Positions 37,672 through 63,890 of a DNA stretch of 64,000 nt are shown here, piece after piece. The notes below the pieces were generated by a model. It was given only the letters and a program-made list of their open reading frames with translations. It was not told the DNA's origin and did no database searches. Position numbers and translations under genes: made by a program. Source of the stretch: Deltaproteobacteria bacterium (GTDB taxonomy: Bacteria > Myxococcota_A > UBA9042 > DTJE01). The stretch is from NCBI GenBank assembly GCA_029555025.1, contig JAKPTZ010000121.1, positions 7,425 through 71,424 on the forward strand. Direction: 5' to 3'. The stretch's first letter is position 1. Every line of letters starts with the position of its first letter.

Positions 37672-37803
37672 TGCGGGCGCCCATTTTTCATCTGTAACAT
37701 TGTGGTTTTCAATCTATAATCCGCTTTCAACGCGTCTCGGCCGGGTTAGGCTCGATCGATTCGGGCGCGTCTGGACAACTCAATGGTATTTCCGGGGGTT
37801 CAA

Positions 37804-54478: not shown

Positions 54479-56518
54479 ATGTCTGTTTCGATAGCAAGCG
54501 TGATTGCGATGTCCCTGATGCTGGTCGTTGCGCTGGCATTTTTCTCCGTCAGCATGTTAAAGCGTATTCGCGTGATGCTCGCGGGGAAACCCGAAGTCCG
54601 ATGGGACAGGCCGGCCCGGCGTTTTGCCGAAATGCTGAAGGTGGCCTTTGCCCAGAGCCGCATGTTCAAGGAACCAGGCCCCGGCATCATGCATGCTTTC
54701 ATTTTCTGGGGCTTCCTGGTTCTGCTCTTCAGATCCGCTTCCCTGATCGGGCGCGCGTATGCGCCGGAGTGGTCCTCGTGGACGCTTTTCTGGTTCTGTC
54801 CGACGCTGGACGGCTGGTACGCCCTGTTGAAGGACGTCACCGAACTGGTCGTGCTGGCGATGATTGCCTGGGCATTCTTCAGGCGCCTTGTCGTCAGGCC
54901 GAAGCGTCTGGAAAATTCATTTTCGGCCTTTCTTATCCTGGGTTTCATATCGTATCTGATGGTTTCCGACTTCATCTATGATGCGTCAAGGTTCGCGCTG
55001 CTGTCGGCAGGCGGCGTGATTCCGGACGCCATGGCTTCCAAAATCGCTCACGAAAGGGAGTGGTCGCCGATCGGCGCCATGGTGGCCGGCTGGCTTGACG
55101 GTCTTTCGCCAGGAACCCTCAAGGTTCTGATCCAGGTCTTCTTCTGGTCGCACGTTGGCGTGCTTCTGGTGTTCCTGAACGAGCTTCCGCTGGCCAAGCA
55201 CTTCCACGTCATCCTGGCCATTCCGAACGTCTTCTTCATGAGGCTGACGCATCCTGGCGCCATCGAGCCGATTCGCGACATCGAGGAACAGGAGACTTTC
55301 GGCGTGCTTCGCCCGACCGAGCTTACCTGGAAGCAGATGATGGACGGCTTTTCGTGTACCGAGTGTGGAAGGTGCACGGTCAACTGTCCGGCCGTCTGCA
55401 CGGACAAGCAGTTGAACCCCAAGCGACTCATCTGTGACATGAGGGATTACGTCCGGGAAAATGAAAAGGCCATCCTTTCCGGCGGGGATCTTGGCGAGAA
55501 GGCCAGGGAGGATGGTCGTTCCCTGATTGACGCCATCCGTGACGAAGTCATCTGGGAGTGCACCACGTGTAGATCCTGCGAGGAACAGTGCCCCGTCACG
55601 ATCACCCACGTGGACAAGATAATCGGTTACCGGCGCTATCTGACGCTGATGGAGGCGTCGATGGATCCCGAACTGGCGACTTGCCAGAAGAACCTGGAAA
55701 ACAAGAGCAACCCCTGGGGACTGCCTTCGGGTGAACGCGGGCTGTGGATGGTCGAGGAACTTGGCGTCCCCCTTCTTTCCGACAAGCCCGATGCCGAATA
55801 CCTCTTCTTCCTGGGATGTTCCGCGGCTTATGACGATCGAAACCGCAAGGCGGCCAGGGCCTTCGTCAAGCTGCTGAACGCGGCGGGCGTCAGCTTCGCG
55901 ATACTTGGGCCGGAGGAGGGTTGTTGCGGGGATACGGCCAGGCGGCTTGGCAATGAATACCTGTTCCAGGCCCAGGCAAGTCAGAATATCGAGGTGTTCA
56001 AGGAATACGGGGTCCGAAAGATCGTTACGATGTGTCCCCACGGATTCAACACGATCAGGAACGAGTATCCGCAGTTCGGCGGCGCTTTCGAAGTTATTCA
56101 CCATACGTCGCTGCTGGCCGCCCTGGTTGCCGAAGGCCGGCTGTCATTCGAAGGCGGCAAGTCCGATGCGGTGGTTTACCACGACTCCTGTTACCTTGGC
56201 AGGTATAACGGGATTTATGAAGATCCGCGCAAGGCTCTTGCGGGTGCCGGACTGTCCCTTGTCGAGGCCGACAGGTCCGGGAAGACCGCGATGTGCTGCG
56301 GCGCCGGCGGCGGCATGATGTTCCGGGACGAAAAGGAAGGAAGTCGCATCAACAGGTTGCGGGTCAACCAGCTTGTTGAAACCGGGGCGAAGAGCATTGT
56401 CAGCGCGTGTCCTTTCTGTCTGGTGATGTGTCGCGACGGCATCAACGAGGAAGGCATCGATCAGAACGTGTCGGCCTTTGACGTGTCCGAAGTGCTTGCC
56501 GAAAGGTTGAAGGCCTGA
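54479..56518 (+). CDS. Membrane-anchored Fe-S oxidoreductase (HdrD/DsrK/GlpC-like CCG-domain protein fused to an N-terminal multi-TM domain)
   Basis: N-terminal ~250 aa with multiple TM helices. Two 4Fe-4S motifs (CTECGRCTVNCP, CTTCRSCEEQCP) and two CCG domains (GCCGD, MCCGAGGG). Confidence 0.75.
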   Translation: MSVSIASVIAMSLMLVVALAFFSVSMLKRIRVMLAGKPEVRWDRPARRFAEMLKVAFAQSRMFKEPGPGIMHAFIFWGFLVLLFRSASLIGRAYAPEWSSWTLFWFCPTLDGWYALLKDVTELVVLAMIAWAFFRRLVVRPKRLENSFSAFLILGFISYLMVSDFIYDASRFALLSAGGVIPDAMASKIAHEREWSPIGAMVAGWLDGLSPGTLKVLIQVFFWSHVGVLLVFLNELPLAKHFHVILAIPNVFFMRLTHPGAIEPIRDIEEQETFGVLRPTELTWKQMMDGFSCTECGRCTVNCPAVCTDKQLNPKRLICDMRDYVRENEKAILSGGDLGEKAREDGRSLIDAIRDEVIWECTTCRSCEEQCPVTITHVDKIIGYRRYLTLMEASMDPELATCQKNLENKSNPWGLPSGERGLWMVEELGVPLLSDKPDAEYLFFLGCSAAYDDRNRKAARAFVKLLNAAGVSFAILGPEEGCCGDTARRLGNEYLFQAQASQNIEVFKEYGVRKIVTMCPHGFNTIRNEYPQFGGAFEVIHHTSLLAALVAEGRLSFEGGKSDAVVYHDSCYLGRYNGIYEDPRKALAGAGLSLVEADRSGKTAMCCGAGGGMMFRDEKEGSRINRLRVNQLVETGAKSIVSACPFCLVMCRDGINEEGIDQNVSAFDVSEVLAERLKA

Positions 56519-56545: not shown

Positions 56546-57514
56546 TCACTGGTCGCCACGGATTTCTTTAATTGTCCGACCCAGGCCTGCCTTCAAGGCG
56601 AAAGGCATGCAGCAGAGCGCCGTCACCGTCCGAATCACCGCAAGGGACGCCGTGGCGCTTGCCGAGAACGCGTCTATGGCAGCCGTCGAACCGCCGGCCT
56701 GCGTGACATAGGGTTCGAAAAATGCCCTCATGAGAACCATGGTGGGTCCGATCCCGGCAACGGTGATCGGAAGGACGCACGCGAAGCTGTCAACGGCGAA
56801 AAGCTGCATGAATACGCCGACAGGAATGTCCAGGTTGAACGTTCCGAGCATCAGGAAGTCGCCCGACATGTCGAACGCAAGCAGGATCACCCGCAATCCA
56901 AGGACGGCGGCCACCCCGGCCGGCCCGGAAGCTCGGAAGGTGTGCAGAAGACCGGAGGGCGCATCCTTCCGCCGCCCTGCCCGCGCATGGGCTGCCGCAG
57001 CCATGACGGCGGGCAGCCCCAGCAGGCCGAGTATCGCTCCAACCGCCAGAAGGGTGGGCACGCCGGCCTTCAGGTGGTCTCCGGAACCCGAGGCGAGACC
57101 GGCGATCAGTATCGCGGACACGACGAAAAGGTCGATCAGGTTCAGGGCTATGAACGGGCTTGCAAGCGATTGCCACCTGACAGACCGGCCCCTGGCCGCG
57201 GCCGCCGCGATCAGCACGAACGCCAGGTTATAGTTGATGAAACCGAGCAGGTATGACGATGCCCGGATTGCCAGCAGGCGGGGATAGGGAATCCCGATGC
57301 CCGTCCGTTGCAGAAGGGCGTGAAGTCCGGCCGAGTCAAGGAGCAGGTGCGCCGCCGCGAAAGCGACGGCCAGGATGGAGAAAGTCCCGAAATCCGCCAG
57401 GGCTACCGCCGAGCGCAAGCCATCGAATTGAGTTGTTGCCGCAACCCAGGCGATGAGGCCCGCGGTTACGAGCCACGGACCAACCCTGCGCGCCACTTCC
57501 CTGAATGTTTTCAT
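56546..57514 (-). CDS. Polytopic membrane protein, flippase-like / lysyl-PG-synthase-TM-like family (UPF0104-like)
   Basis: ~8 predicted TM helices. ATG at 57514 overlaps the upstream stop (ATGA). Confidence 0.5.
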   Translation of the reverse strand: MKTFREVARRVGPWLVTAGLIAWVAATTQFDGLRSAVALADFGTFSILAVAFAAAHLLLDSAGLHALLQRTGIGIPYPRLLAIRASSYLLGFINYNLAFVLIAAAAARGRSVRWQSLASPFIALNLIDLFVVSAILIAGLASGSGDHLKAGVPTLLAVGAILGLLGLPAVMAAAAHARAGRRKDAPSGLLHTFRASGPAGVAAVLGLRVILLAFDMSGDFLMLGTFNLDIPVGVFMQLFAVDSFACVLPITVAGIGPTMVLMRAFFEPYVTQAGGSTAAIDAFSASATASLAVIRTVTALCCMPFALKAGLGRTIKEIRGDQ

Positions 57515-58464
57515 CGCTGGCAGCCCCATGCCTTTCCTGATTCGACAAGCTCCGCCTGCACGGTAAGCCTGACGCCGGTCCGCCAGTCAAAGGGTGCCCG
57601 GAATCCGGACTCATACAGTTCGTGGCAGTCCATTGCGACTGCACTTCCGGGAAACGGGTGCGGGCCGTCGCGGGGATCTTTTCCGGAATCTTCAGGGACT
57701 TCGGGCTCAAGCCCGAGTTCGCTGCGGACTTCGGCCACAAAACCCGCCGGGGTGACCGGATCCGGCCCGGCGACCGGAATGCGGCGAATGCCGGGCCCGG
57801 AAGGGCTTGATGAGATGTGGACAATCGCGTGCGCAACCGTATCGACGAAGCCGTCGGGCATGGCGTTGTCGCCGTTGCCCGCGAACCGTACCGGTCGTCC
57901 GGTCATGATGGCGCGGATGACATCCCTTGTCCTTCCGCGCCGGCCGTCCGGGTCGTGGTCGCCCGGCCCCCACATCATTGGCAGGATGACCCATGTGACA
58001 TCAAGCCAGGGCTGATCCGCAAGGACCAGGAAGGCTTCAAGCTTTCCCCTGGCGTGTTCGTCGTCGGCCATCAGCGGCGAGTCGGATCTTATCGTCCCGC
58101 CTTCAGCCAGGATTCGTGCATGTTCGCCGATCGTGGACGTGATGACGAATGATGGGAGCCTGATGCCGGAATCCGCCACCGTCCGGCACGCGCTGACCAG
58201 TTGGACGGCGTCGTCGGCACTCGATATCGCCGTGTCAATCCATGTGGTGGCGCCGGACTGCAGAAGCATCTTCGCCAGATCGGGTCGTTGCCGGTCTCCG
58301 GTAATCCGGGTGACGCCGCCTGTCTGTCGGATCGGGCGCCGCCTGGAGACTCCCGCAATCCCGTCGACCGGACGCCCGGAAGCGGTCGATGCGGATGCCG
58401 CGGCCAGGCACAGGCGATGTCCCAGGAATCCTCCGGCCCCGACGATGATGGTGTGGAATTTCAC
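57511..58464 (-). CDS. NAD-dependent epimerase/dehydratase family (SDR-type Rossmann) protein
   Basis: 'IIVGAGGFLG' dinucleotide motif. GTG start overlaps the radical-SAM stop (GTGA); the ORF opens at 58563 but would then overlap the upstream gene by 100 nt. Confidence 0.6.
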   Translation of the reverse strand: MKFHTIIVGAGGFLGHRLCLAAASASTASGRPVDGIAGVSRRRPIRQTGGVTRITGDRQRPDLAKMLLQSGATTWIDTAISSADDAVQLVSACRTVADSGIRLPSFVITSTIGEHARILAEGGTIRSDSPLMADDEHARGKLEAFLVLADQPWLDVTWVILPMMWGPGDHDPDGRRGRTRDVIRAIMTGRPVRFAGNGDNAMPDGFVDTVAHAIVHISSSPSGPGIRRIPVAGPDPVTPAGFVAEVRSELGLEPEVPEDSGKDPRDGPHPFPGSAVAMDCHELYESGFRAPFDWRTGVRLTVQAELVESGKAWGCQR

Positions 58465-59471
58465 GTCCGAACCCCGCCCGACTCGAATTCGTCCCAGCCC
58501 ATTTTTCGGGTGTATTCGGAAAATACACCGGTGCAAGGTTCGTTCCAGCGGCAGCGGCCGCACGTTTTTCCGTTCTTCTGCCTGTCGCTGCCGACGGACC
58601 CGCCGTAGGCCCCGGTAATCAGGTTGAATTCCGATTCGATCAGGTACGCGTCCAGGTTATAGCCCTCGTATCCCGGCATCAGGCAGTTCGGGATGTTCTT
58701 GAACCCGACGCCGACCCCGACCTCGCGTCCGCGGTCGATTGCGGCCCGTATCGCCGCCGCCGACTCGGACAGGGGCAGGAAGATGCGATCCATATCCTCC
58801 GAGGTGCTTCCGGCCGGCTTCATGCCGGAAAAAATCACGGTGGGCTTGTGGGAAATCGGCTTCAGGGCCGCCACCGAATCCACGTAGTTGTTCATGTGGG
58901 CAACGTTTGCCCTTGTGACCACGCCGTACAGGAACGTCTCTACGCCTGGAGTTCCCATCAGGTTCATAAGAGCCTTGAAAACAAGTTCCCCGCAGCGTGG
59001 ATTCCTGGAAAGCCACACGGTAGTCTCCGGATCGAAGTCGTCGATGGACAGGTGTACCGTCCGCATGCCGGCATTCACAAGGCTGGCAACGACCTTCGGG
59101 TAGGAAAGCATCAATCCGTTTGTCGTAAGCGTGATTTCGTTGATGCCCGACGCAGTAAGGAGCTGCATCGTATGCAGCAGATCCCTGCGAATCGTCGGCT
59201 CGCCCCCGACCAGCGCGCACTTGCGGAAATTCCAGCGGGCCGCCTTCCTGATGGTGTCGGCCACCGATTCCGGCGTGGCATAGTACTGGTGGCTGTGATC
59301 CAGGCAGCAGTACCGGCACGACATGTTGCAGACGTTGCCCAGGTTCAGGTGGAACACATGACTGCACATCCTGCTGAAGCGCAGCATGAAATCCACCGGG
59401 GAATCACATGCCGGAGTGTCGCGCAGAATGGTTACATCGACGGTGGGATCAAGAGTCTTCTGGTGATACAT
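58461..59471 (-). CDS. Radical-SAM enzyme with a C-terminal SPASM/twitch-like Cys cluster
   Basis: 'CNMSCRYCC' CxxxCxxC motif and C-terminal 'CGRCRWNEPCTG'. ATG at 59471 after GGGGGAA. Lies 100 bp downstream of the BMC-T gene on the same strand. Confidence 0.75.
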   Translation of the reverse strand: MYHQKTLDPTVDVTILRDTPACDSPVDFMLRFSRMCSHVFHLNLGNVCNMSCRYCCLDHSHQYYATPESVADTIRKAARWNFRKCALVGGEPTIRRDLLHTMQLLTASGINEITLTTNGLMLSYPKVVASLVNAGMRTVHLSIDDFDPETTVWLSRNPRCGELVFKALMNLMGTPGVETFLYGVVTRANVAHMNNYVDSVAALKPISHKPTVIFSGMKPAGSTSEDMDRIFLPLSESAAAIRAAIDRGREVGVGVGFKNIPNCLMPGYEGYNLDAYLIESEFNLITGAYGGSVGSDRQKNGKTCGRCRWNEPCTGVFSEYTRKMGWDEFESGGVRT

Positions 59472-59573
59472 CGGTTCCCCCGGCCGCACCCCCGAAAACG
59501 ATTATAGTCGCCGCCGTCGCCGTGGCCATAAAAAGTTGGGATGGGGCATTGGCAATGGGAAGGCTCTTTGTCG

Positions 59574-60179
59574 TCAGACAGGTGAGATACCGAGTGCGGC
59601 GATGAATTCGGGGTGTGGATTCGGTATGACTTCGGTGCCGAGCAGCCTGTCCTGGCCGATGCTTTCGGCCGCGGCCTGGATCGATGCCTCCACGTCGAAG
59701 AGGTCGCCGGAAAAAGCGAAGTAGCACTTGCCGCCGATGCCCGCCGAAAGGTGAATGACGTTTAACTTGACCATGGCCGCCTTCAATGCCGCGTCGGCCG
59801 ATCTGATGCCGGCGCACGAGGTCGAGCATTCCACGACACCCAGTGCTTCTGCCCCCGGGTCGGCCATGGGCCCGAAAACCCCGCGCTCAAGCTGCTCGTG
59901 TGCAAATGGAAGGAAAAACCTGTCAATCAGCTTGTCGCCTGCAAGCCTTTCGGCTTCCAGCAGCGATTCCTCGACCTCGGCAACGCTTCCGTCGATAAGT
60001 ATCAGGAATTTTCCCGGAGTCACGGTCGCGGCCAGGCATATGCGCGAGCGGGCCTTCTTGACAAGCGCGTCGATGCAGACGAAGCCCCGTGCGATCCCGT
60101 GTACTTCAATCCCCGCGAATGCCTCGGGGACGACCTGAAGGTCGGGCAGTGGAAAAAATCTGGCTGGTGTAAGGCTCAA
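59574..60179 (-). CDS. Tandem-BMC-domain shell protein (BMC-T, PduT-like)
   Basis: Two BMC-like domains (AGIEVHGIARGFVCIDALVKKA... and ALGVVECSTSCAGIRSADAALKAAMVKL...). TTG start 4 nt after GGAGG. Confidence 0.7.
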   Translation of the reverse strand: MSLTPARFFPLPDLQVVPEAFAGIEVHGIARGFVCIDALVKKARSRICLAATVTPGKFLILIDGSVAEVEESLLEAERLAGDKLIDRFFLPFAHEQLERGVFGPMADPGAEALGVVECSTSCAGIRSADAALKAAMVKLNVIHLSAGIGGKCYFAFSGDLFDVEASIQAAAESIGQDRLLGTEVIPNPHPEFIAALGISPV

Positions 60180-60216
60180 TTGGCCTCCGCAAAGGATCTC
60201 GCCCGAAAAGGGGGCG

Positions 60217-61656
60217 TCAGACGATCCTGAAATAGTCCTTGAGCACGCATCTGCGCTCGCGGGTGAAGTTGATTGCCGTGGTCATGCCTTCCCCGGTCGG
60301 GCTGGCAATCGTCCACGACGTATGACCCTCACCCATGAAACCGGTGCCGGCCAGCGACGGCGCGTTTTTCACGAAGATCGAGCAGTCGGCCGCGCGCGCG
60401 TACCGGTGCAGGTTTTCGATGTTCAGCGAATGCATCACGGCGGTATGCCGGAATCCGTGTTCAACCCGAAGTGCCGCCTTGATTCCCTCATCGACGTTTC
60501 GAACCCGGAACATCGGGATGATCGGCATCAACTGTTCGGCCTGAACCAGCGGGTGTTCCTCGTCGACTTCGCAGAATGCAATCCTGACATCGTCGGGAAT
60601 GTCGATTCCCACCTGCTTGAGGATGACCGAAGCGTTCCTTCCGACGAACGCACGATTCGGTTCGTGACCCTTCAATACGAGATCGACAAGTTTCGGCACG
60701 ACGTTGTCCCTGATGTAGTAGGCGCCGGCCCTGACCAGTTCCTGCTTCAGCCTGTCGGCAATCGCCTCGACCGCGATGATTTCCTTTTCGACGATGCAGA
60801 TGATGTTGTTGTCCATCCCCGCACCCTTGACGATGTCCCTTGCGGCATTAGGAAGTATGGCCGTTTCGTCAACCAGCGCCGGAGGATTGCCTGGGCCGGC
60901 CGCGATGCACTTCTTGCCGGTTCCCATCGCGGCCTTGACGAGGCCCGGGCCACCGGTGACGACAACAAGGCGCACGCCGCTGTGGCGCATCAGCCTGTCG
61001 GCCGATTCGATGGTCGGCTCCGGAATGACGCAGATAAGGTTGTCCGGTCCACCGGCCGCCATTACGGCCTGGTTCAACATCCTGACGGTATCGACCGTCG
61101 TCTTCTTCGCGTTCGGGTGGGGGTTGATCACGACAGCGTTGCCGCCGGCGATCATTCCGATTGCGTTGTTGATGATCGTTTCAGTCGGATTAGTGCTCGG
61201 CGTGATCGAGCAGATGACCCCGTATGGGGCGCGCTCGGTCAGGGTGAGTCCGTAATCGCCTGTCTGAGCCTTCGGCTGGAGGATCTCGATTCCCGGGGTC
61301 TTCAAGGCTGCAAGCCTGTTCTTGGCAATCTTGTCCTCGACGCGGCCCATCTTTGTTTCTTCGTGGGCCTTGCGCGCAAGCTCGGGCGCGTTCGCCACCG
61401 CAACATCCCGGATGGCCTGGATGGCATTGGCGCGAACCTCGAGTGAAAGACGCATCAACTGTTCGTGCGCCGCCTGGGCCGCCTGCACGCAGCCGTCGAT
61501 GTCATTGTGGACACCGAAGGTGCCTGGCTTGTTGACGTTGGTCACGATGGCCGGGCCCCGAACCGGGCCGTGTCCAGCCGGCAGGGCTCCCTCGTCCCGC
61601 AGGCGGGCCATCACCTGTTCCACGATTGAGGATATTTTCTGCTCTTCAACAGCCAT
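60217..61656 (-). CDS. CoA-acylating aldehyde dehydrogenase (EutE/PduP-type) with an N-terminal encapsulation-peptide-like amphipathic helix
   Basis: Aldedh fold with catalytic-Cys region 'NNIICIVEKE'. N-terminus 'EEQKISSIVEQVMARLRDEG' followed by a Gly/Pro linker. Confidence 0.85.
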   Translation of the reverse strand: MAVEEQKISSIVEQVMARLRDEGALPAGHGPVRGPAIVTNVNKPGTFGVHNDIDGCVQAAQAAHEQLMRLSLEVRANAIQAIRDVAVANAPELARKAHEETKMGRVEDKIAKNRLAALKTPGIEILQPKAQTGDYGLTLTERAPYGVICSITPSTNPTETIINNAIGMIAGGNAVVINPHPNAKKTTVDTVRMLNQAVMAAGGPDNLICVIPEPTIESADRLMRHSGVRLVVVTGGPGLVKAAMGTGKKCIAAGPGNPPALVDETAILPNAARDIVKGAGMDNNIICIVEKEIIAVEAIADRLKQELVRAGAYYIRDNVVPKLVDLVLKGHEPNRAFVGRNASVILKQVGIDIPDDVRIAFCEVDEEHPLVQAEQLMPIIPMFRVRNVDEGIKAALRVEHGFRHTAVMHSLNIENLHRYARAADCSIFVKNAPSLAGTGFMGEGHTSWTIASPTGEGMTTAINFTRERRCVLKDYFRIV

Positions 61657-61669
61657 TGTGGCCCCCTGG

Positions 61670-61957
61670 CTACTTCAGGTAGCGAGACCTGCCGTCGATC
61701 GCCAGTTCATCGACGATCGCCATGATCGTCGCGTCAACCGGACGATTCTTCGTCGCTTCAGTCTGCCTGGCCGACGAGCCGCTGGCATAAAGGACGACTT
61801 CACCAACGCCGGCGTCCAGAGAATCGGCTGCCACGACCATTTTGCCGGTCTCCTTCATGTTCTGATCCAGTTCGTTGACGACCAGAAAGCGGAGCCCGAC
61901 CAGATCCTCGTTTTTCCTGGTGGATACGACGGTACCCACCACGATTCCCATCATCAT
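61670..61957 (-). CDS. BMC vertex pentamer protein (BMC-P, EutN/CcmL family)
   Basis: '[27 protein letters not shown]...' EutN/CcmL fold. AGGGAGGA RBS. The ORF opens at 62038. Confidence 0.85.
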
Positions 61958-62110
61958 GGCAGTCCTCCCTTCGGACTCTGGGTCCGACACGGCGCCCTGT
62001 GACGTTCGGGCGACCAGTGGTGCCCGATCACGGAACATCAGCAGGCAGGGCTTGTCCGGCCCGCCTGAACGGCAACCGCTTCAGGCCGGCCAAACGTATT
62101 CCCCGCGGGC

Positions 62111-62407
62111 CTACTTGCCGGCCTTCGCGCCCTGGCGGCCAAGCGGCAGGACTTCGTCGATGTTCGCGTGCGGACGCGGAATAACGTGAACGGAAACCAG
62201 TTCGCCAACGCGTTCAGCCTGGCGGGCGCCGGCCTCGGTCGCCGCCTTGACCGCGGCGACGTCGCCACGGACGATGGCGGTGTTGTAACCGCCGCCGATC
62301 TTTTCATAGCCGACCAGTTCAACCTTGGCCGCCTTGACCATGGCATCGGCCGCCTCGACCAGCGCAACAAAGCCCTTCGTTTCGATCATTCCAAGAGCAT
62401 CAGCCAT
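62111..62407 (-). CDS. BMC hexamer shell protein (BMC-H, PduA/EutM/CcmK-type)
   Basis: '[56 protein letters not shown]' canonical BMC domain. GGAGG RBS. Confidence 0.9.
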
Positions 62408-62470
62408 CGTTAACCTCCAGAACTTAACAAAGCCCGTCGCGTCCGCGCGGGCACATCCAGTCGCCCGGCA

Positions 62471-63082
62471 TCAAACGCCGGACATCGATTTCAAAACCTT
62501 TATCGCCGCCTCGGCTGCCGAATCGATTTCGGATTCGGATCCCGAGAGCCATAGCCGTCCGTAAGCGCCGTGGGGATGAATTTCGACGAGGGAGACGTCG
62601 GCGGCCTTGAGTGCCTCGTTTGCCGCGATCGCCACATACCCCGCCGGTTCGGTTTCAAGAATGAACAGGCTCTGCCCGGGAAGGATCATCATGCCCCACG
62701 AATTTCTGTTGATGATCTGGGCCTGGAACGGTTCGATGGAACGAATAATCTGGGTCGATGTGATCACCGGCTTCATCCGGTCGTTCTCGGAAAGCTTCAG
62801 GTAGTCCAGGATCGCGGCGCCGGCACGCTCGACCTCGCCCTTGTCGAAATCGTGGAGTTCGACCACGCCGAAGGCCCGCTCCACCACCTGCATGCCAGGG
62901 GCCACCGTTGTTGCCTTCAGTGCCCGATCCGTGATCCTGTTGATGATGATTGCCGGCTGGACCTCGACGAACAGCGAGGCCTGCTCCGGCAGCGGCAGGA
63001 ATCCCTGGGCCGTCTTGCCCAGATAGGCCGCGAGTTGCGGCTGCAGGCTGTCGATGAATGAAAAGGTCCGCAGGGTAATCAT
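62471..63082 (-). CDS. Tandem (permuted) BMC-domain shell protein (BMC-T, PduB/EutL-like)
   Basis: Two permuted BMC-like repeats (…[25 protein letters not shown]… and …[25 protein letters not shown]…). ATG at 63082; the ORF opens at 63181. Confidence 0.65.
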
Positions 63083-63335
63083 TTCAGTCGTCCAGGTCGC
63101 CACGCCCGGCCGGGCCGGTACTTCCGTCCGTTCCAGGGTCGTGGCCAAGACTCGCGGCAGATTATCACAGGAAGCGGCCACCAGTCGATAGCTATTGCGT
63201 GAAAAACAGTGTGTACGGATGTTCAGGCAAGATGCGTCTGGATCGGTTCCATGCGTGAGCCTGAAGGCCGGCGGTTCAACGGGTTACATCAAATCTATTG
63301 ACCTTGTCACCCCGCTGCGTGCAACATTCCGTGGT

Positions 63336-63349
63336 CAACGTTTCCGTTG
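63336..63349. promoter_or_regulatory. Inverted repeat CAACG-TTTC-CGTTG in the divergent BMC/rubrerythrin intergenic region
   Basis: 5-bp arms with a 4-bp spacer ~35 nt upstream of the rubrerythrin ATG. Nearby TGACC/GTCAAC half-sites. Confidence 0.2.
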
Positions 63350-63383
63350 TTTTTCAAGTCAACCGGATTCATGGAGGATCGAC

Positions 63384-63890
63384 ATGGGCAAGACGACAGA
63401 CAACCTGAAGGCGGCCTTTGCTGGTGAGAGCCAGGCCAGGAACAAGTACATCGCATATGGGCGCAAGGCCGAACTCGAAGGCATGCCGAACGTGGCAAAG
63501 CTCTTCCGGGCCGCAGCAGATGCCGAGGAAGTCCACGCCATCCGCCACTGGAAGGCCCTTGGAATGGTACGCGACACGTTGCAGAATCTCGAGGACGGGC
63601 TTGCTGGCGAAACGTACGAAATCGTCGATATGTATCCAGAATTCCTCGCCCAGGCCGAGAAGGAGCAGGAAATCACGGCGACCTATGCCTTCAAGGGCGC
63701 CCTCGAGGCCGAAAAGATCCACCAGAAGCTGTATGCCGCGGCCATCGAGGCGGTCAAGGCAGGCGCCAGGGACATCGAGGCATTCCGCGTATATACATGC
63801 GAGGTCTGCGGTTACACCCACGTTGGTGAACCGATCGAGAAGTGTCCGATCTGCTCTGTTCCGTGGACGAAGTTCCACGAAGTCCTGTAG
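63384..63890 (+). CDS. rbr: Rubrerythrin (ferritin-like diiron domain plus C-terminal rubredoxin-like CxxC...CxxC)
   Basis: 'KAAFAGESQARNKYIAYG...EEVHA' diiron motifs and 'CEVCGY...CPIC' rubredoxin-type domain. GGAGGA RBS. Confidence 0.85.
   Translation: MGKTTDNLKAAFAGESQARNKYIAYGRKAELEGMPNVAKLFRAAADAEEVHAIRHWKALGMVRDTLQNLEDGLAGETYEIVDMYPEFLAQAEKEQEITATYAFKGALEAEKIHQKLYAAAIEAVKAGARDIEAFRVYTCEVCGYTHVGEPIEKCPICSVPWTKFHEVL

Follow-up and report, generated by a model that had tools for sequence, protein, structure and literature searches.

A radical-SAM, extended-SDR and flippase-like gene trio beside a minimal microcompartment cassette in uncultured Myxococcota is probably an independent unit

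The hopanoid gene set brings together HpnA, a sugar epimerase-like short-chain dehydrogenase/reductase (SDR), the radical S-adenosylmethionine (SAM) enzymes HpnH and HpnJ, and HpnL, a protein of the LPG_synthase_TM family, in a pathway for membrane-lipid head groups. In the tunicamycin system, TunA, a nucleoside diphosphate (NDP)-hexosamine 5,6-dehydratase, is paired with TunB, a radical-SAM C-C coupling enzyme, TunB being 67-86% and TunA 38-54% identical (PMC6965331). The radical-SAM enzyme AbmM has a nucleoside sugar ring as its substrate site (PMC12691670). Among bacterial microcompartments (BMCs), a catalogue published in 2021 records loci of the HO and MIC types without an obvious signature enzyme, such incomplete loci being unexplained, and the glycyl-radical activase is the sole radical-SAM component in its list of hidden Markov models (PMC8217296). 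Here we describe three overlapping genes, encoding a radical-SAM enzyme, an extended SDR and a flippase-like membrane protein (the trio), which lie directly downstream of BMC genes in a 64,000-nucleotide (nt) stretch of contig JAKPTZ010000121.1 from an uncultured member of the Myxococcota; this whole stretch is called the window. The BMC genes form a minimal HO-like cassette, in which shell genes of the BMC-T, BMC-H and BMC-P types, an acylating aldehyde dehydrogenase (AldDH) gene and a second BMC-T gene (BMC-T2) follow each other in the order T-H-P-AldDH-T. As the trio adjoins such a set in only one group of uncultured Myxococcota, it is probably not microcompartment cargo and probably represents an independent unit instead of a BMC component. 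The reading that we favour, with reasonable though far from full confidence, is that the trio is a self-contained, translationally coupled operon with a promoter of its own, which stands downstream of the cassette by coincidence in one family-level lineage of uncultured anaerobic Myxococcota (Anaeromyxobacteraceae-like metagenome-assembled genomes, MAGs) and modifies a sugar or head-group precursor. Within this reading the substrate class is less secure than the independence from the BMC.

All three genes are on the minus strand. The radical-SAM gene (58461..59471) runs from an ATG at 59471 to a TGA ending at 58461 and encodes an orphan enzyme of 336 residues. The SDR gene (57511..58464; GTG at 58464, TGA ending at 57511) encodes a divergent extended SDR of 317 residues that resembles NDP-sugar epimerases and dehydratases, and the membrane protein gene (56546..57514; ATG at 57514, TGA ending at 56546) encodes a polytopic protein of 322 residues, a divergent member of the LPG_synthase_TM or "flippase-like" family. 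For the latter an alternative ATG at 57529 would give 327 residues, and gene callers on identical contigs are split between both starts. The radical-SAM stop and the SDR start share a GTGA overlap, the SDR stop and the membrane protein start an ATGA overlap; the first-pass annotation of this DNA, which had described three stop-on-start genes behind a PduT-like BMC-T, was borne out in this by the sequence and the list of open reading frames (ORFs), the gap being 102 nt. Its term "uncharacterised module" also holds, as no curated family was reached and the translational coupling of the three genes persists in loci that arrange them differently. The identical radical-SAM protein is encoded, in the same gene order, by at least 24 public contigs, including the NCBI MAG GCA_035401265.1, and related contigs are labelled as Anaeromyxobacteraceae, Myxococcales or Myxococcota MAGs, which agrees with the phylum that the first-pass annotation had guessed. 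At the strain level the radical-SAM gene shows zero non-synonymous versus six synonymous differences, and the ratio of non-synonymous to synonymous substitution rates (dN/dS) is about 0.26 for the SDR and membrane protein genes; the counts are small in both cases and indicate purifying selection. The GC content of third codon positions is uniform (0.71-0.77) across trio, BMC genes and flanking regions, so that composition gives no hint of a recent transfer.

The same three families occur together away from microcompartment genes. In L009, L012 and L014 (related loci are designated by L numbers and homologous proteins by P numbers), where the radical-SAM protein is 39-42% identical to that of the window, they stand in the order membrane protein, radical-SAM, SDR, joined in L009 by overlaps of 4 nt, and behind them come two large radical-SAM proteins as well as B12-radical-SAM and U32-like genes. 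No shell genes were found within 10 kb of the trio in these three loci, and shell genes are absent from seven loci with radical-SAM relatives in all (L009, L012, L014, L010, L109, L110 and L111). Radical-SAM relatives at a greater distance (26-28% identity) also lie within radical-SAM-rich clusters. Four of the top matches of an exhaustive HMMER search are proteins of 687-714 residues in which an N-terminal Radical_SAM domain is naturally fused to a C-terminal Epimerase domain (P0053, P0054, P0055, P0072). Their SDR halves align with the SDR family of the trio, and one of the radical-SAM-SDR fusions sits in a locus without BMC genes (L111). Such fusions provide Rosetta-stone evidence that both enzymes work together, independently of microcompartments, and we regard the pair of radical-SAM enzyme and extended SDR as the conserved core of the trio. 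In the fusion locus (L111, 8844-13195) the fusion gene is abutted by a radical-SAM gene for 385 residues and followed by one for a Cys-rich protein whose signal peptide is of the lipoprotein type; VgrG-like (Phage_GPD) and pentapeptide-repeat genes adjoin.

The cassette, in turn, also exists without the trio. When metagenomes were scanned with an AldDH alignment, 80 loci were obtained, and these were compared by tblastn with all proteins of the window. The T-H-P-AldDH-T order proved to be widespread, being shared by dozens of loci whose AldDH is 45-57% identical; HO-like loci usually go on with two more BMC-P genes, and the cassette described here ends after BMC-T2. The trio is present in just one of the 80 loci (L027, AldDH 85% identical), while about 70 HO-like loci have the cassette without it. 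In L030 and L032 (AldDH 68% and 64% identical, respectively) the five-gene cassette likewise ends at BMC-T2, then come convergent ORFs, and there is no radical-SAM homologue at the locus. In a rough neighbour-joining tree of AldDH, calculated without support values, L030 is nested among the trio-bearing loci and L032 is their sister. The full trio was found in the window, L027, L107, L108, L016 and L013, all of which belong to one clade (clade A). BMC adjacency was seen in this clade only, whose loci also share flanking housekeeping genes; synteny of trio and BMC genes, which the first-pass annotation had proposed to check in related genomes, is kept in close relatives and absent in distant ones.

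The spacer between the genes for the PduT-like BMC-T2 and the radical-SAM enzyme (59472..59573, minus strand, 102 nt) contains a sigma-70-type promoter-like site, TGGCCA-16-TATAAT (59501..59528, minus strand), which a consensus scan found with 10 of 12 matches and whose -10 heptamer CTATAAT (59507-59501) lies 29 nt before the ATG. CTATAAT is located 20-37 nt before the ATG in six out of six distinct orthologous spacers (window, L108, L027/L107, L015, L018, L007) and is kept in L007 at a radical-SAM identity of just 49%. In the aligned spacers of five orthologous loci it is the sole invariant block, the remaining spacer having diverged. The heptamer occurs twice in the 64-kb window with both strands counted, the other copy being at 37714-37720 (plus strand). 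Its conservation across diverging spacers leads us to read it as a -10 element belonging to a separate promoter, and as judged from this motif the 102-nt spacer most likely provides the trio with a sigma-70-type promoter of its own. No terminator-like hairpin was found on the minus strand of the spacer. RNA folding gave z = +0.62 against shuffled sequences, indicating no stable structure, and an Rfam search returned 0 matches, so there is no riboswitch or other RNA; the spacer holds a single short ORF, which overlaps the promoter-like site and for which no conservation was seen. The first-pass annotation had named a terminator or promoter in the gap together with lost synteny as the finding that would separate trio and cassette. 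A promoter-like element is present and distant relatives are without BMC synteny, but close relatives keep it and a terminator is lacking.

The cassette (59574..63082, minus strand), which we do not count with the trio, was defined by Pfam and NCBIfam matches and by gene calls on identical contigs. It comprises, all on the minus strand, a CsoS1D/CcmP-like BMC-T (63082-62471), a BMC-H (62407-62111), a BMC-P (61957-61670), the acylating AldDH (61656-60217) with an amphipathic, encapsulation peptide-like N-terminus (MAVEEQKISSIVEQVMARLR), and the PduT/HO-T1-like BMC-T2 (60179-59574), which has PDB matches to PduT and to BMC-T of Haliangium ochraceum. The set is unusually minimal, being without a signature (aldehyde-generating) enzyme, a phosphotransacylase and an alcohol dehydrogenase, and no further shell genes were found elsewhere in the 64-kb window. 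The missing step could have been supplied by the radical-SAM/SDR pair, if this had been recruited as the signature or substrate-preparing enzyme of a minimal metabolosome and were co-transcribed with the shell genes. We regard this as unlikely, even though the same strand, the 102-nt gap without a terminator, the adjacency kept in all clade-A loci examined (with a gap of 6 nt in L013) and the lack of an aldehyde-generating enzyme in a kind of locus that is unexplained in the BMC catalogue (PMC8217296) all fit it. Trio and pair exist without BMC genes and the cassette exists without them, a conserved -10 element lies in the spacer, and sequence divergence in the trio runs far ahead of that in the shell and AldDH genes: compared with the window, L027 shows identities of 73% for the radical-SAM enzyme, 45% for the SDR and 52% for the membrane protein, as against 85% for AldDH and 93% for BMC-H.

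The proteins themselves were also inspected for signs of a place in the compartment. No encapsulation peptide-like extension specific to BMC-adjacent copies was found on the radical-SAM enzyme or the SDR. The termini of the radical-SAM enzyme, which its structural model folds into an N-terminal beta-hairpin plus helix and a C-terminal helix, are homologous in BMC-free relatives and in the fusions and are therefore not targeting peptides; the terminal encapsulation peptide that the first-pass annotation had suggested looking for on this protein is thus not there. The two enzymes are soluble (maximum hydropathy 1.06 for radical-SAM, 1.43 for SDR) and lack any BMC-specific terminal extension or helix, in contrast to the AldDH with its classic amphipathic N-terminus. 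The translationally coupled third product is a polytopic membrane protein which, with about seven to eight transmembrane segments, cannot be lumenal. The pore Cys of PduT is a ligand of an Fe-S cluster. BMC-T2, whose similarity to PduT and to H. ochraceum BMC-T1 is about equal, has Thr (VTPGKF) at the position of this Cys (ICPGKF). Nothing therefore hints at a route for electrons to a radical-SAM enzyme in the lumen, and an Fe-S pore in that role was rejected. Most radical-SAM enzymes use SAM stoichiometrically, which suits biosynthesis better than high-flux catabolism. On the other hand, DesII and AprD4, which both occur among the structural matches of the trio enzyme, exemplify radical-SAM lyases and dehydratases whose reactions are analogous to those of the B12 enzymes in known metabolosomes. 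A derived exchange of the catalytic Tyr for His or Leu, common to the BMC-adjacent SDRs and described below, could in addition mark a changed function. The BMC catalogue offers no precedent, having the glycyl-radical activase as the only radical-SAM model in its list (PMC8217296). The first-pass annotation had left the choice between a BMC signature or cargo enzyme and a separate lipid or envelope unit. The latter is favoured by the trio without BMC, the cassette without trio, the CTATAAT element and the fusions, whereas the former has no positive support beyond adjacency in one lineage. We consider it improbable that the cassette of the Anaeromyxobacteraceae-like lineage captured the radical-SAM enzyme and the Tyr-less SDR as an aldehyde-generating or substrate-preparing step, with the membrane protein supplying or removing a substrate at the membrane.

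The radical-SAM protein matches Pfam Radical_SAM with an E value of 1.9e-20 and carries the cluster motif CX3CX2C at C48/C52/C55. In an alignment of 13 family members, four C-terminal cysteines are nearly invariant (C263 and C304-X2-C307-X5-C313). They form an auxiliary-cluster-like site resembling the CX2CX5C part of the SPASM motif; the protein gave no match to Pfam SPASM (PF13186), which has a seven-Cys motif. Hence the label "SPASM/twitch" given in the first-pass annotation stands as to part of the motif and fails as to the Pfam family. An AlphaFold2 model had a predicted local distance difference test score (pLDDT) of 84 overall, but below 50 at residues 302-313, the C-terminal Cys site. 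With this model Foldseek returned generic radical-SAM neighbours only (TM-scores of about 0.45-0.52), DesII and AprD4 among them, with GDGT-MAS/Tes, also a top sequence match, in first place. The nearest solved chains by sequence to the radical-SAM core are AbmM (8wm2, E 1.9e-15) and MoaA (E 3.7e-15), and the sequence neighbours of the core are mostly enzymes of nucleotides and nucleotide sugars (AbmM, MoaA, viperin, BlsE, DesII); the core is MoaA/viperin/AbmM-like.

The subfamily classification called for by the first-pass annotation was run against curated families and ended without an assignment, as the enzyme reached no curated cutoff of NCBIfam, Pfam SPASM or PADLOC. An identity as MoaA (GTP 3',8-cyclase) was rejected because of scores of 69-73 bits versus cutoffs of 231-325, an alignment covering only the first 130-150 residues and the lack of a PF06463 (Mob_synth_C) match. 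The same applies to a glycyl-radical activase, since no activase model was among the NCBIfam matches listed, no cutoff was reached and there is no glycyl-radical enzyme gene in the loci, and to pVip, with which the core alone aligns (profile positions 5-161 of 257, 53 bits; NCBIfam viperin 47 bits versus 180). The top NCBIfam match was HxsC4 with 98 bits against a cutoff of 500, and HxsC scored 51 against 268; the HxsC alignment covers nearly the whole protein, including the C-terminal Cys motif. An HxsC or HxsC4 identity was nevertheless rejected, as the scores are far under the cutoffs and, in place of Hxs genes, those for an SDR and a membrane protein adjoin. A looser relationship of this kind, in which an HxsC/SPASM-like enzyme acts as a maturase on a peptide of ribosomal origin or on a Cys-rich protein that is secreted, and the membrane protein exports the product, would agree with these best matches, with the SPASM radical-SAM genes that neighbour the trio families in L009, L012, L013 and L014, and with the Cys-rich lipoprotein encoded after the fusion gene in L111. 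We judge such a maturase to be quite unlikely. Apart from the low scores, HxsA, HxsB or HxsD partners and a conserved small ORF are missing, and the obligatory partner is an NDP-sugar-type SDR, in some cases even fused, which is not a feature of known maturases of ribosomally synthesized and post-translationally modified peptides (RiPPs).

For the radical-SAM family the exhaustive HMMER search gave, at E <= 1e-30, 545 cluster representatives, of which many are multi-domain; the tiny family of about 15 clusters indicated by a word-indexed search was thus a method artefact. The family contains uncharacterised giants with two to five tandem radical-SAM domains and up to 1406 residues (P0058, P0062, P0141 and others). 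A further member, of 289 residues, in L010/L019 (8566-9435) is without the entire C-terminal Cys site; it comes after aroB/aroD-E/aroA/aroK-like genes, and about 5 kb further downstream the locus has an SDR, a DegT gene and an ABC transporter. The multi-domain proteins of up to 1406 residues, together with the clusters of four to eight radical-SAM genes (with B12-radical-SAM and U32 genes) in which clade-B and more distant relatives are embedded, raise the thought that the trio is what is left of a multi-radical-SAM cluster making a modified membrane lipid or small-molecule part unrelated to sugars. The leading position of GDGT-MAS/Tes in Foldseek and among the sequence matches would fit such an origin, as would the weak best matches of the B12-radical-SAM neighbours (HpnJ, BchE and "lipid biosynthesis B12" models) and the GDSL lipase-like genes near the trio families in L012. 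These neighbours, however, reach no curated cutoff, and annotation of the multi-radical-SAM neighbours in L009 and L013 gave no curated family. Moreover, both the fold class to which the SDR belongs and the L007 neighbour DegT suggest sugar nucleotides and, as only three genes are left in the window, a long pathway cannot run there as in the relatives. A remnant pathway is unlikely in our estimation.

The SDR matches Pfam Epimerase (PF01370; E 1.6e-7, 31.5 bits, cutoff 20.9) and has the Rossmann motif GAGGFLG (GxxGxxG) at residues 9-15, in keeping with an extended SDR. When its profile was compared with the PDB, UDP-glucose 4-epimerases were best (E 5e-10), and overall the best matches are NDP-sugar epimerases and dehydratases. 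The catalytic YxxxK is absent in the window, where HARGK takes its place. Tyr is replaced in every BMC-adjacent SDR (HSAGK or HSGSK in L015 and L016, HSLGC in L007, LARKN in L013), while BMC-free homologues and the radical-SAM-SDR fusions retain YxxxK in the form YG(x)xK. The change from Tyr to His or Leu, seen in BMC-adjacent copies only, is a derived feature; a pseudogene is argued against by the dN/dS value given above, within the limits of its small counts. The window SDR is the shortest of its family and lacks the C-terminal tail that others, BMC-free ones included, carry. Tails in L007 (11016-12047; PPEVIASLARAGRILEAGGR) and L013 (11019-12029; ELKQIRALETEVVKLVQGG) resemble a linker plus amphipathic helix, and equivalents of this type exist in BMC-free family members.

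The membrane protein aligns with LPG_synthase_TM (PF03706) over profile positions 6-287 of 302 (E 1e-6) with 28.9 bits, below the gathering score of 33.4, and the match is also carried by its homologues P0046, P0048-50 and the L009 protein. Hydropathy indicates about seven to eight hydrophobic segments. An AlphaFold2 model built from five sequences had a pLDDT of 46, too poor for fold comparison, and nothing useful was found in the literature on PF03706 together with radical-SAM enzymes. Among BMC-adjacent relatives, the third gene encodes LPG_synthase_TM in the window, L027, L107, L108, L016 and L013, a DegT sugar aminotransferase in L007 and an ABC_membrane_2/SbmA-BacA exporter in L015. All these variants have envelope or sugar functions.

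The third-gene variants, the profile matches of the SDR and the neighbours of the radical-SAM core point to sugars, nucleotides and the envelope, and for this reason we propose that the trio would most likely serve to modify, by radical chemistry, a precursor of the nucleotide-sugar or lipid head-group type on its way to the envelope. The radical-SAM enzyme would reductively cleave SAM, and the 5'-deoxyadenosyl radical would abstract a hydrogen from the substrate, either a nucleotide-activated sugar or a head-group precursor of the sugar/polyol kind. The SDR would supply or resolve a keto intermediate; in the BMC-adjacent lineage, where it is Tyr-less, it may serve only as a nucleotide-binding partner. 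The flippase-like protein would then move or install the product in the cytoplasmic membrane or envelope. We infer substrate class, chemistry and envelope destination alike from these family relationships.

Several observations weigh against an independent envelope operon. On the functional side, the resemblances behind the substrate proposal are weak, the lipid enzyme GDGT-MAS is an equally good structural neighbour, the window SDR has no catalytic Tyr, and the third partner in the fusion locus L111 is a Cys-rich lipoprotein and not a flippase-like protein. As to the genomic context, same-strand BMC adjacency is found in all clade-A loci examined (window, L027, L107, L108, L015, L018, L007, L013), down to 47% radical-SAM identity, and the absence of the trio from L030 and L032 concerns these loci only. 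The promoter is a conserved motif match and not a mapped start, with a weak -35 region and irregular spacing to a TTGC-like element in relatives, and there is no terminator between the BMC-T and radical-SAM genes. The L013 spacer, finally, has 6 nt and is without TATAAT, so that co-transcription with the BMC genes is likely in L013 and read-through from the BMC operon into the trio is possible in the window.

On the other side of the trio, a gene on the plus strand (54479-56518) converges on it with a gap of 27 nt and encodes a membrane-anchored Fe-S protein of 679 residues with two CCG domains, similar to HdrD, TfrB and DsrK. Its position is conserved in close relatives, and trmB-like and polA genes come next. 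Beyond the cassette a rubrerythrin gene (63195-63890, plus strand) diverges from it, a position kept in the BMC-adjacent loci L007, L013, L027 and L031.

If the trio is indeed a separate operon, a radical-SAM gene beside shell genes should not be counted as metabolosome cargo by adjacency alone, and the minimal T-H-P-AldDH-T cassette stays without a signature enzyme. The radical-SAM/SDR pair itself is a sizeable family without a characterised member and would be of interest as an enzymology target for new radical chemistry on nucleotide sugars or lipids in anaerobic Myxococcota. Should the pair belong to the compartment after all, this metabolosome would be the first to depend on a radical-SAM enzyme and would offer a way into the function of HO/MIC-type compartments; a capture by the cassette would add a third radical chemistry feeding a microcompartment, beside B12-dependent and glycyl-radical enzymes.

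When described systems are set against the locus, GRM-type BMCs share with it that a radical-SAM enzyme, there a glycyl-radical activase, is encoded in a BMC locus. The HO-type locus of H. ochraceum and the neighbouring cassette have T-H-P-AldDH-T in common, and BMC-T2 matches H. ochraceum BMC-T1 with E 8.5e-32. The SPU-type compartment described for Myxococcota and Asgard archaea was discarded as a parallel, as it is a different BMC type. For the single proteins, the C-terminal CxxCx5C-like motif of AbmM aligns with that of the trio enzyme; against MoaA, viperin, AbmM, BlsE and DesII, however, identity is 14-22% over the first 110-170 residues only and the curated cutoffs are missed widely. 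The membrane protein resembles the MprF flippase domain and PF03706 in its near full-length profile match and its multi-pass character and differs from them in its sub-threshold score and the lack of a fused synthase domain. The hopanoid Hpn set has the same three protein classes together. Nevertheless, no squalene-hopene cyclase was seen in the trio loci, Hpn models matched neither the SDR nor the membrane protein at E <= 0.01 and were not among the 25 of 52 radical-SAM matches listed, and the B12-radical-SAM neighbours in relatives score 114-166 bits against HpnJ, with a cutoff of 578. The nearest architectural analogue of the enzyme pair is TunA/TunB. There, too, an SDR of about 320 residues adjoins a radical-SAM enzyme of about 337-340 residues, and the Tun pair acts on nucleotide sugars (PMC6965331). 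In both cases the radical-SAM partner is the more conserved one, here with 73% versus 45% in L027. The likeness is in architecture only. The gene order is reversed, other tun genes are lacking and the SDR is without the catalytic Tyr; the SDR profile matches PDB entry 3vps, which we take to be TunA, weakly and with the Rossmann part alone (E 2.5e-5). We place the trio, as an uncharacterised member, with biosynthetic or envelope-modification operons that combine radical-SAM enzymes and SDRs, and not with the components of microcompartments.

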